From Eledone cirrhosa (lineage: Eukaryota), in NCBI GenBank assembly GCA_964016885.1, contig OZ024745.1:12028001-12092000 (forward strand): a stretch of DNA of 64,000 nt, in the 5' to 3' direction. Position numbers and translations under genes: made by a program. Position 1 is the stretch's first letter, and every line of letters begins with the position of its first letter. The notes beneath the pieces were generated by a model. That model ran no database searches and was not told the origin of the DNA. It was given only the letters and a program-made list of their open reading frames with translations. Of the stretch, positions 2,838-59,745 are shown in pieces.

Positions 2838-3908
2838 TTGGAAAATGTGTGTAATCCTTGGTACAGTTAGGTATATTAAGACAGGGGGAAGAAAAAATGG
2901 CTTCACTTGTGCTTTCAACAAATTTATTTTCTTCACAAAATCCAAAAAGAATTTTTCTTAAAAAAATTATTTTATAAATTAAGTTGTTGGTTGTTGGTTA
3001 GGTCTTAGGAGTTCTTGGTTAACGTAGGAGGTATTGTTTCGTTTTTAGAAAGATCTTTCACGCTGAGGTGCGCTTGTCAAACTGATGTGTATGTGGTGTG
3101 TTGTTCTATATATAGGGATTTAACATGTCTGTGGTGTGGTGGGGGTTTCTTTTCTCCCCCTTTAATAAGTGCATGGGTGTAGGTGTGTAGAAAAAGTGTT
3201 CATAGCAGTAATGAGTTGAGAGGGTGAGTAGGGTTGGGTGGGGAGAAATGTAGCAAGTGCGGCCTGCCCCGGTCATTCTCGAAAAATTCCTTTATTCAGG
3301 GGAAAAAGCTTTTAGTATTGCTTTTGTGTTGAGAATGGTCACAGGCAAATCGTAGAAAAATTCTTCAGGAGAAAAAAGAAAAAAAAAAAAAAAGAAAAAA
3401 AATAATTATTCACAAACTTGACAGGTGCGATTTGCCTGTGACCATTCTCAACACAAAAGCAATACTAAAAGCTTTTTCCCCTGGATAAAGGAATTTTTCG
3501 AGAATGACCCTGGCAGGCCGCACTTGCTACATTTCTCCCCACCCAACCCTACTCACCGTCTCAACTCATTACTGCTATGAACACTTTTTCAACACACCTA
3601 CACCCATGCACTTATTAAAGGGAGAGAAAAGAAACCCCCACCACACCACAGACATGTTAAATCCCTATATATAGAACAACACACCACATACACATCAGTT
3701 TGACAAGCGCACCTCAGCGTGAAAGGTCTTTCTAAAAACGAAACAATACCTCCTACGTTAACCAAGAACTCCTAAGACCTAACCAACAACCAACAACTTA
3801 ATTTATAAAATAATTTTTTTAAGAAAAATTCTTTTGGGATTTTGTGAAGAAAATAAATTTGTTGAAAGCACAAGTGAAGCCATTTTTTCTTCCCCCCTGT
3901 CTTAATAT
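2838..3908. mobile_element. Fold-back element, ~480-bp inverted arms, inserted in (TA)n
   Basis: Arms 2873-3352 and 3428-3908 are near-perfect reverse complements around a 75-bp A-rich spacer; (TA)n on both flanks; no hammerhead core found. Confidence 0.85.
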
Positions 3909-4224
3909 ATATATATATATACACATGTGTATATATATATTTATAGAGAGAGGGCGGGGAGAGACAGAGATAGATATATATAGATATATATATATACACA
4001 CATGTGTATATATATATTTATGGAGAGAGAGGGGGAGAGAGACGGGGATATATATATACACAAGTGTATATATATATTTATAGAGACAGGCGAGAAAGAC
4101 AGATATATATACATACACACACACACATGTATATATATATATATATATATATATTTATGGAGAGAGCTGGGAGAGAGACAGATATATATATATATATATA
4201 TATATATATATATATATATATATA

Positions 4225-4808
4225 CATGGTGGCTGCCAACTCGTTTTCGAGTAGGGCCACTACTTTATATCCATGTAGGAGAACCCCTACCGATGCGCTG
4301 AACAAGTGTGACTTTTTAGTCCGGCCAGCGACTTGAAAACTCTGGTACAAACACTACACTTGTGACAATTACTGACACATAGTGCTGGGCCCATGGTACC
4401 ATGTGACGACAAGTGCAGAGAGATCTCCAGATATAAAGCAATGCCTGTGCCGTGAAGCTTTTATAGTGAGTAAAGGCACTGCACAAAGCCAGTCCCACTC
4501 TCTTAACCAAGAAGAAATTTACCAAAAAGAAGAACAAGTCAACATTATTGGATACCATCAGGGTTGCAGGTGTTATATCAGAGTTTTCCTTCTCCTAGAA
4601 TTCTGCCTTGACAAAGGCTAAGGGGTCATCTCTCCCGGTGATTTTGGATGGCCATTGACTCTTAAGAACTCCTTTGCCCTTTGACAGGTTTTGTTTTTAG
4701 TCCTGCAGGATGTCCAAAGTCACCCTCCTCACCAAGAAACCTTGGTGGGGTTGCCAGTTTAGTCGTCAACGACCCGACCATGGGATACATGTTACCAGTA
4801 GCACCAAA
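4225..4808 (-). mobile_element. Non-autonomous RTE-related retroelement (RTE-like 5' UTR, no ORF)
   Basis: Minus strand has tagcctttgtcaaggcagaattctaggagaaggaaaactctga, resembling RTE-clade 5' UTRs; second, 5'-truncated copy at 39158-39517 with the same 3' end. Confidence 0.6.
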
Positions 4809-4841
4809 TAAAACGAAAGGAGCTGTGTGGTTACTAAAAAC

Positions 4842-57300: not shown

Positions 57301-58687
57301 CAGTGTAATGTATAGTTAAACTGTAATGTTCTGACGAGTGTATACAGTGTAATGTATAGTTAAACTGTAATGTTCTCACGAGTGTATACAGTGTAATGTA
57401 TAGTTAAACTGTAATGTTCTGACGAGTATATACAGTGTAATGTATAGTTAAACTGTAATGTTCTGACGAGTATATACAGTGTAATGTATAGTTAAACTGT
57501 AACGTTCTGACGAGTGTATACAGTGTAATGTATAGTTAAACTGTAACGTTCTGACGAGTGTATACAGTGTAATGTATAGTTAAACTGTAATGTTCTGACG
57601 AGTAATACAGTGTAATGTATAGTTAAACTGTAATGTTCTGACGAGTATATACAGTGTAATGTATAGTTAAACTGTAATGTTCTGACGAGTAATACAGTGT
57701 ATTGTATAGTTAAACTGTAATGTTCTGACGAGTATATACAGTGTAATGTATAGTTAAACTGTAACGTACTGACGAGTGTATACAGTGTAATGTATAGTTA
57801 AACTGTAACGTTCTGACGAGTATATACAGTGTAATGTATAGTTAAACTGTAATGTTCTGACGAGTGTATACAGTGTAATGTATAGTTAAACTGTAATGTT
57901 CTGACGAGTGTATACAGTGTAATGTATAGTTAAACTGTAATGTTCTCACGAGTGTATACAGTGTAATGTATAGTTAAACTGTAATGTTCTGACGAGTATA
58001 TACAGTGTAATGTATAGTTAAACTGTAATGTTCTGACGAGTATATACAGTGTAATGTATAGTTAAACTGTAATGTTCTGACGAGTGTATACAGTGTAATG
58101 TATAGTTAAACTGTAATGTTCTGACGAGTATATACAGTGTAATGTATAGTTAAACTGTAATGTTCTGACGAGTGTATACAGTGTAATGTATAGTTAAACT
58201 GTAATCTTCTGACGAGTAATACAGTGTAATGTATAGTTAAACTGTAATGTTCTGACGAGTATATACAGTGTAATGTATAGTTAAACTGTAACGTTCTGAC
58301 GAGTGTATACAGTGTAATGTATAGTTAAACTGTAACGTTCTGACGAGTGTATACAGTGTAATGTATAGTTAAACTGTAACGTTCTGACGAGTATATACAG
58401 TGTAATGTATAGTTAAACTGTAATGTTCTGACGAGTATATACAGTGTAATGTATAGTTAAACTGTAATGTTCTGACGAGTATATACAGTGTAATGTATAG
58501 TTAAACTGTAACGTTCTGACGAGTATATACAGTGTAATGTATAGTTAAACTGTAATGTTCTGACGAGTATATACAGTGTAATGTATAGTTAAACTGTAAT
58601 GTTCTGACGAGTATATACAGTGTAATGTATAGTTAAACTGTAATGTTCTGACGAGTATATACAGTGCAATGTATAGTTAAACTGTAA
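54381..58687. repeat. 44-bp satellite, ~98 copies (4.3 kb)
   Basis: Unit ttctgacgagt(a/g)tatacagtgtaatgtatagttaaactgtaa(t/c)g. Confidence 0.98.
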
Positions 58688-59055
58688 ACATCGAGGAAGT
58701 AGTGATGTTCTGCGTCAGCAAAAAGCAATACAGACAATTGCTTATGTTAAATGACTTGAGGAAGAAGAAGACTAACGTTTTGGACATTTTTCTTTCTTCA
58801 GAGAAAGGAAAACACACACAAACACACACATGTATACATATATGTATATGTGTATGAATATATATATATATATATATATATATATATATATATATATATG
58901 TAGTGGCACACCCATAAATAAACGAACACACGCACATATATACATATTTATATATTCATATATATATGTATATATATATATATATATATATATATATATA
59001 TATATATATATATATATATATATATATATATATATATATATATATATATATATAA

Positions 59056-59745
59056 ATCTACAACAAATTTACGGTAGTGTCTAATCCGTATGAAGAACTC
59101 AATGTAATCATGAAAAGAGAAGATGCATTCAAAAACTTATTTCGGTGAAAAATAAACGGAAAACAGAGTCAAGATAAATTAATAAAATAATGAATAAACA
59201 AAGAAACAGTTCCTTATATTAAAAAAATTCATAATTTTACGATCGTTTCTAGGATATATATGTGTGAGAGTTGGTATGCATATTCTATAGATCTATGTAC
59301 AATATTTATACAAACTATCAGAGGGAATATACATACCTACACATATATATGCTGTCTAATTCATCATTTTACGATCGTTTCTAGGATATATATGTGTTAG
59401 AGTTGGTATGCATATTCTATAGATCTATGTACAATATTTATACAAACTATCAGAGGGAATATACATACCTACACATATATATGCTGTCTAATTCATCATT
59501 TTACGATCGTTTCTAGGATATATATGTGTTAGAGTTGGTATGCATATTCTATAGATCTATGTACAATATTTATATAAACTATCAGAGGGAATATACATAC
59601 CTAGTTTGTATAAATATTGTACATAGATCTATAGAATATGCATACCAACTCTAACACATATATATCCTAGAAACGATCGTAAAATGATGAATTTTTTTAA
59701 TATAAGGAACTGTTTCTTTGTTTATTCATTATTTTATTAATTTAT
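59056..59745. mobile_element. Fold-back element family K with internal 132-bp tandem repeats and half-hammerhead
   Basis: acgatcgtttc at 59239, 59371 and 59503; inverted arm 59602-59745 with GAAAcgatcgTA at 59670-59681; flanked by (TA)n. Confidence 0.85.

Follow-up and report, generated by a model that had tools for sequence, protein, structure and literature searches.

The Hydra clade of Penelope-like elements (PLEs), as set out by Craig et al. (2021, PMC8557442), comprises elements with a C-terminal endonuclease (EN+) and includes Hydra-1_Obim; 27 families are listed there, mostly 1–3 kb long and one of them from an octopus. Its members have RW(K/R) and DKT motifs, a CxCX5C linker and C-terminal CxxC plus CxH without CCHH, together with a hammerhead ribozyme in the pseudo-long terminal repeat (pLTR), (TA)n targets and an occasional inverted copy at the 5′ end (Penelope-13_HM). 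The canonical PLE insertion unit is described as a pLTR, an adjacent inverted, 5′-truncated copy and an optional tail (PMC3846280; PMC8557442; PMC11167929); the tail optionally sits on one of the inverted pLTRs, and junctions carry palindromes (PMC3846280). How tandem and inverted insertions are assembled is stated as open (PMC8557442, PMC11167929). Here we analyze a 64,000-nucleotide stretch of Eledone cirrhosa DNA (the window: contig OZ024745.1, positions 12,028,001–12,092,000, forward strand, within the 3.0-Gb assembly GCA_964016885.1) that is crowded with palindromic insertions. We consider it probable that these palindromes are PLE insertion products, each fold-back likely arising in one event through two coupled priming reactions at a TA repeat.

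The described traits recur in the window and in related copies elsewhere in the genome. Head-to-head arms, a tail at one end, junction palindromes and microhomology are shared with the canonical PLE unit, and the Hydra-clade traits are found as well. The hammerheads resemble the minimal PLE hammerheads of Cervera and de la Pena (2014, PMC4209133) in being type I, in the extra base after A9, in the palindromic helix III and in the U3-A8 variant; hammerhead pairs on opposite strands 100–700 bp apart, like those of the window, were ascribed to truncated PLEs in the same paper. Recently active Penelope families have been reported in an octopus (PMC13282606), in whose accessible text we found no hammerhead or Hydra analysis. 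Inverted 5′-truncated copies, the tail, (TA)n targeting and hammerheads with a palindromic helix III are thus already published, and what is added here are counts.

Self-BLAST after tandem-repeat masking, combined with a read-out of the sequence, recovered inverted-arm insertions at all 16 positions listed in the original prediction, most with arms 85–100% identical. As that prediction held, (TA)n or (GA)n borders nearly all 16; palindrome 4842 has TA at just one border, and 51186 is an old, degenerate insertion. The window is rich in (TA)n, (GA)n and (TG)n. At least 12 unrelated families had been proposed; we found 13, or 14 when the single-arm element at 37857 is included, and together they occupy 8.4 kb, 13% of the window. 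Their members are listed below, with PLE classes as assigned from the motifs discussed further on and families named after a position in the window (UTR, untranslated region):

2838–3905: fold-back 3′ end (3′ UTR/pLTR) of a Neptune-like PLE; arms 98% identical; degenerate U3-A8 hammerhead without evident stem I.
4842–4934: short fold-back at the 3′ end of a longer repeat family; element start near 4808; coding partner untraced.
11008–11455: fold-back 3′ end of a Hydra-type PLE with a tail on the left arm; hammerheads 11354+ and 11204−.
12490–12808: fold-back 3′ end of a Hydra-type PLE; hammerheads 12727+ and 12638−.
24208–24533: head-to-head pair of Hydra-type PLE 3′ ends, both with tails, separated by (TA)22; hammerheads 24403+ and 24338−.
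31711–31912: fold-back of a Hydra-type PLE, cut within hammerhead stem II (3′ half only).
32186–32404: fold-back of the 31711 family, from self-BLAST.
32855–33250: fold-back of a non-coding, circularly permuted ∼335-bp monomer; single hammerhead 33098+.
36737–37941, plus strand: 1.2-kb 5′-truncated copy of a very young Hydra PLE; 30-nt inverted piece at the 5′ end; core CCGAAGA at 37862.
38473–38783: fold-back of the 12490 family; hammerheads 38635+ and 38555−.
43475–43859: fold-back of a non-coding ∼435-bp tandem monomer; hammerhead broken here, whole in most other copies.
43876–44317: 3′ end of a Hydra-type PLE as a fold-back, with a degenerate core and an AATAAA after its palindromic helix III.
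44625–45016: fold-back 3′ end of a Neptune-like PLE with two tailless arms; hammerheads 44862+ and 44778−.
46787–48158: fold-back in three segments from a non-coding ∼1.29-kb monomer, with a tail on the right arm; hammerheads 47963+ and 46901−.
50891–51094: fold-back of the 31711 family, from self-BLAST.
51185–51524: old fold-back, ∼80% identical to other copies, some of which have CTGATGA where the core here is degenerate; partner untraced.
59055–59742: Hydra-type PLE end as a fold-back that includes a 132-bp partial tandem in triplicate; junctions interrupt the core.

Long copies of the families were followed in the 5′ direction at loci of the same genome (L-numbers). Nine of the 14 families proved to be 3′ ends of coding PLEs with reverse transcriptase (RT) and GIY-YIG domains, seven Hydra-type and two Neptune-like, which bears out the Penelope-like origin suggested originally; the search for RT+GIY-YIG frames by 5′ extension, proposed as a check, succeeded for these nine. 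Eleven of the 16 insertions are truncated ends of coding elements found elsewhere in the genome, and no trans-mobilisation of a non-coding element is therefore needed for them. The 2838 family is 96–97% identical to both flanks of a 1024-residue RT+GIY-YIG open reading frame in L061, and to L075, and the 44625 family lies 200–340 nt downstream of an RT+GIY-YIG frame in L064, L065, L068, L074 and L076. The 11008 family runs on into the C-terminus of a GIY-YIG domain in L089 and is linked also through L225; the 12489/38471 family has a reading frame and 3′ UTR common to L227 and L229–L231. For 24208 a first upstream search came back empty and a longer query succeeded, revealing a 729-codon frame between two pLTR matches in L421. 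Hydra-type frames are linked to the 31709/32188/50891 family in L171, L183, L221 and L226, and to the 37857 family in L312–L317; the remaining two links, for 43877 and 59056, are weighed below. No coding partner was traced for families 4842 and 51186. Direct pLTR repeats stemming from a partial tandem arrangement are present in L500, L314, L421 and L355. A tblastn search within the window yielded no PLE enzyme frame, as had been stated.

First-look genome searches, whose candidates are not copy numbers, returned 756–3173 candidates for most families queried: 1028 for 4842, 756 for 11008, 920 for 12490, 2855 for 31711, 3173 for 43876, 1822 for 32879, 1581 for 43473 and 1101 for 46785. The palindromic 59056 query gave 86 and its sister subfamily 940; a genome search for GIY-YIG returned 10,596. 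The window itself holds another retroelement, on the minus strand at 16338–19769: a near-complete non-LTR retrotransposon of the restriction-like endonuclease (RLE) type with RT, zinc finger and endonuclease in two frames, whose motifs look R4/Dong-like. A second RLE endonuclease-end remnant, split by (TA)n, lies at ∼53230–53634. The RLE-type long interspersed element of the window was rejected as the mover because the families lead into GIY-YIG frames instead.

Pfam matched RVT_1 and GIY-YIG in L061 and L064 and GIY-YIG in L225; L314, L229, L221 and L226 gave no Pfam match, yet they align in the RT and endonuclease (EN) motifs. RW(R/K) is present in three of four long Hydra-type frames (L415 is without that stretch) and DKT in all four; the CxCX5C linker is found in six of seven EN-bearing rows (L221 has F at the second C), and the terminal CxxC in all seven. 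In the Hydra-type proteins the terminal CxxC/CxH is present and CCHH is absent. On these signature motifs of Craig et al., the seven families are classed as Hydra-type. The translations of L061 and L064 have the CX2-5CxxC linker and CCHH in a C-terminal EN, as in Neptune, and their two families are best called Neptune-like; the linker is also common to Nematis, to which they might instead belong.

The Hydra-type families differ in several respects from those in PMC8557442. The clade is described there as generally shorter than 3 kb, a tendency and not a strict criterion, whereas the units here reach at least 4.2 kb, with simple-repeat-rich 3′ UTRs of 1.3–2.5 kb and a recent burst of open frames. 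Seven families in one 64-kb window compare with the 27 listed there in all, so that the clade appears much richer here than described; some of these families may match named Repbase or Dfam families. In the literature searched, we met neither a host with as many Hydra families nor a count of tail pairing.

The 37857 family illustrates the burst. Its window copy is 96.6% identical to L314, which has an 830-codon frame, and the 40 best matches of 37857 are 100% identical. An RT protein search with this family gave 43,380 candidates, 131 of which were scored; in ∼42 of these a frame of 830 or 832 codons is open, and ∼40 rows have one common bit score. L500 contains a 1060-bp pLTR repeat, 100% identical, at a spacing of 4199 bp, and the family unit measures 4.2–4.3 kb. 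Judged from these sequences, the family is very young, with a recent burst of copies with open frames.

The evidence on how the insertions form comes mainly from their ends. The 5′ ends vary and the 3′ ends are fixed: in each modelled family the 3′ end falls at one of two points, either at a short internal TA (the inner point) or, depending on the family, 33–168 nt beyond it (the outer point). The long and short arms noted originally do exist; the asymmetry is mostly this 3′ tail, and either arm can be the longer one. The fetched loci contained 143 unique fold-backs, 135 with two clean ends (eight partial-tail cases were excluded). One tailed and one tailless arm were joined in 125 of the 135, with both arms tailed in eight and both tailless in two. 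Copies met as bystanders in loci fetched for other families were one-tailed in 38 of 38 cases; unpaired bystander arms divided into 39 tailless and 36 tailed. Coding-linked families obey the rule in 108 of 111 clean fold-backs and non-coding families in 17 of 24, a lower count in which tandem continuation can mimic a tail. The tails measure 33–168 nt, against 30–40 nt in canonical PLEs, and the one-tail pairing, independent of which arm is longer, is here counted.

Young copies show the same arrangement. All five multi-kb head-to-head pairs obey the one-tail rule, and their arms differ at 0–1 of ∼490 nt, compared with 2–4 differences to another copy; divergence of arms within an insertion is lower than between insertions in 10 of 11 families. 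Arms abut within 10 nt in 117 of the 143 fold-backs, and the junctions (51 with overlap, 20 blunt, 72 with extra bases) mostly differ from copy to copy, although some recur. With all families pooled, a microsatellite is present at 257 of 286 ends, in agreement with the microsatellite targeting that had been proposed. Of the 125 one-tailed fold-backs, 20 have a tailless arm that extends >50 nt further in the 5′ direction than the tailed one, 13 show the opposite, and in 92 neither arm does so; in L489 and L498 the tailless arm is longer by >1 kb.

From these computational data we infer nicking of both strands, two coupled priming events and joining of the cDNAs, in the following way. The GIY-YIG domain would nick both strands of the self-complementary (TA)n, and reverse transcription would start twice, from the inner site, which gives no tail, and from the outer site, which does, on the same RNA or on two RNAs of one donor. 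The two cDNAs would stop at variable points, and their ends would then be joined, in many cases by way of a few bases that both have in common. This fits the Poseidon PLE in vitro, for which both strands are cut and extended and two internal start sites define the tail; a dimer is predicted for it, and ribozyme cleavage was dispensable in vitro (PMC11167929). A more specific version, to which we give somewhat less than an even chance, is that one dimeric ribonucleoprotein (RNP) primes twice on opposite strands of the TA repeat, one subunit per start site and possibly on the same RNA twice, and that the short non-coding monomers hijack this cycle.

Several observations weigh against two coupled priming events or against the coding linkage beneath them. 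The one-tail rule is broken by 10 of 135 fold-backs, among them 24208 (both arms tailed) and 44625 (both tailless) in the window; the 5′ ends lie no more than 50 nt apart in 92 of 125, and the young junction in L495 falls exactly on the hammerhead stem II hairpin. The fold-back sample consists of best matches and their neighbours and is not a census, and two queries included the tail. A 12489-type end in L233 has a different frame upstream. The links are thin for 43877, whose upstream Hydra-type frame is frameshifted and seen at the single locus L318, and for 59056, which is connected through a sister subfamily, 83–87% identical, with a 785-codon frame in L415. No enzyme was matched to the three non-coding families. 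The same elements might instead acquire their second arm by snap-back: a hairpin or microhomology would let the one cDNA fold over and be copied back as DNA, and resolution at the internal TA site would leave this copy without a tail. Junction palindromes have led to a proposal of self-priming (PMC3846280), and EN-mediated resolution has been put forward to account for the tail (PMC8557442); snap-back would account for the one-tail rule, the identity of arms, the equal 5′ ends (within 5 nt in 60 of 125) and the L495 junction. We nevertheless regard it as unlikely: in the 20 fold-backs with a tailless arm more than 50 nt longer, and by >1 kb in L489 and L498, it needs an extra deletion of the first strand each time, and the tailless arm often does not derive from the tailed cDNA. 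Because either arm can be the longer one, two coupled priming events are favoured over simple snap-back.

The original prediction took the palindromes for non-coding ribozyme retroelements that form a community and depend throughout on mobilisation in trans. This holds for three of the 14 families, and in two others, 24208 and 31709, the 5′ truncations of bystander copies pile up within ∼15 nt, ∼55–60 nt upstream of the tailless end, a position that corresponds to hammerhead stem I in one family and to the stem II loop in the other. Because of these pile-ups and the recurring junctions, re-transposition of short fold-back copies as mini-elements is possible. As a general statement the proposal is refuted by the nine families that lead 5′ into RT/GIY-YIG frames, with 11 of 16 insertions derived from coding elements, and junctions mostly differ between copies; we hold it to be quite improbable. 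Fold-back chimeras occur in long-read data, and many families stack in the same (TA)n, so that assembly artefacts, or independent pairs of insertions in one microsatellite, have to be weighed as well. The element at 24208 has a (TA)22 spacer and two tails; public contigs and RAD reads carry the 46785 family, and none spans the junctions of 46787–48158. Against this, arms differ by family-specific tails and substitutions, 117 of 143 abut within 10 nt, and the pairing rule is not expected by chance, which leaves this explanation scarcely credible. Two coupled priming events by PLE enzymes thus remain our preferred reading.

Three of the 14 families (32879, 43473 and 46785) close on themselves without a coding frame. 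Copies of 32879 have the family's own 3′ end as their upstream sequence, giving a permuted monomer of ∼335 bp; 43473 has a tandem period of ∼435 bp in L352 and L353; and 46785 forms a ∼1.29-kb unit closed by a direct pLTR repeat in L355–L358. The coding frames that adjoin 32879 in L350 and 43473 in L351 were dismissed as neighbours, each separated by a TA junction and having its own end repeats. As non-coding monomers of a few hundred base pairs, permuted or in tandem, with one type I hammerhead, 32879 and 43473 match metazoan non-LTR retrozymes or non-autonomous PLEs (PMC7229834; bioRxiv 10.64898/2026.07.22.740005) in sequence design; 46785 is larger, and the nine coding-linked families do not match. 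Unlike the described retrozymes, the monomers here are dispersed, with a PLE tail, 5′ inversion and (TA)n targets. They are likely moved by PLE RT+GIY-YIG enzymes.

With a relaxed type I descriptor we found 13 hammerheads in the window, against a mean of 1.0 and a maximum of 4 in 40 block-wise dinucleotide shuffles: 11354+/11204−, 12727+/12638−, 24403+/24338−, 33098+, 37862+, 38635+/38555−, 44862+/44778− and 54082−, the last of which was absent from the original prediction. The cores 47963+/46901− were missed by the descriptor and are plain by eye. The complete folds predicted originally are thereby recovered; one of them, 37862, lies in a single arm and has the deviant core CCGAAGA. Rfam, also proposed as a check, gave no hammerhead family among the best 150 of 374 matches, only sub-threshold microRNA-type hairpins. 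Most insertions had been said to carry outward-facing hammerheads, yet two intact cores occur in only six of 16 (11008, 12489, 24208, 38471, 44625 and 46785). In 31709, 32188, 50891, 43473 and 59056 the truncation or a junction cuts the ribozyme, which longer copies retain intact. In nine of 13 families the commonest or joint-commonest class of helix III is a perfect palindrome, in eight different words, the dimer-type design of PMC4209133; one family has an odd palindrome, and three have an ordinary, monomer-type hairpin. These hairpins, and the CCGAAGA core kept by an active family, depart from PMC4209133. Between sister subfamilies of 37857, helix III has changed on both sides. That PLE ends carry pLTR hammerheads, as proposed, is supported at the level of the motif.

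Self-cleaving RNA from both strands, also proposed, appears doubtful. Predicted stem I pairing drops from 0.44–0.89 for the motif alone to 0.0 in the whole fold-back RNA in four of four symmetric elements, so transcripts of whole palindromes are predicted to bury the ribozyme; the predicted monomer fold is weak even alone for 37857 (0.05) and 32879 (0.12). The hammerheads would simply be carried along with the pLTR, and they are predicted to act mainly as dimers where transcripts are tandem.

Further hammerhead-like sequences were observed. The match at 54082 (−), in an element at ∼53850–54275 whose family is also present in L351 and L500, has a palindromic helix III, and a motif at 32044 (+) amid (TA)n runs has a cleaner copy in L071. 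The 3′ ends of other Neptune-like families in L062, L063, L073 and L079 have U3-A8-type or otherwise deviant cores with an ACCGGT helix III. In the young Hydra family (L500, L314) the CCGAAGA core, with C at position 4, is found in both subfamilies, and stems and helix III are maintained. Other repeats in the window comprise two 90% identical copies of a 380-bp dispersed repeat adjoining (TA)n (4229–4608 and 39164–39518), a 180-bp SINE-like family (short interspersed element; at 8024, 20126, 23220, 41311, 43067 and 44414), an inverted arrangement of a non-autonomous Helitron-like repeat at 50051–50860 (2214 candidates; helicase fragments and a CTAG end in L461 and L464), and Tx1/L1-like non-LTR fragments at 15267–15665 and 26548–27680, one of them interrupted by a trinucleotide repeat.

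For annotation, such fold-back stumps, which fill 13% of the window, are easily mislabelled as miniature inverted-repeat transposable elements, microRNA hairpins or new non-coding families, and Pfam missed most Hydra-type frames. For the PLEs themselves, the one-tail rule and the symmetric arm lengths constrain models of insertion, and the young Hydra family offers an intact enzyme together with hundreds of fresh products. If a dimeric RNP does prime twice, this active family, with its dozens of near-identical open frames, would make the model directly testable.

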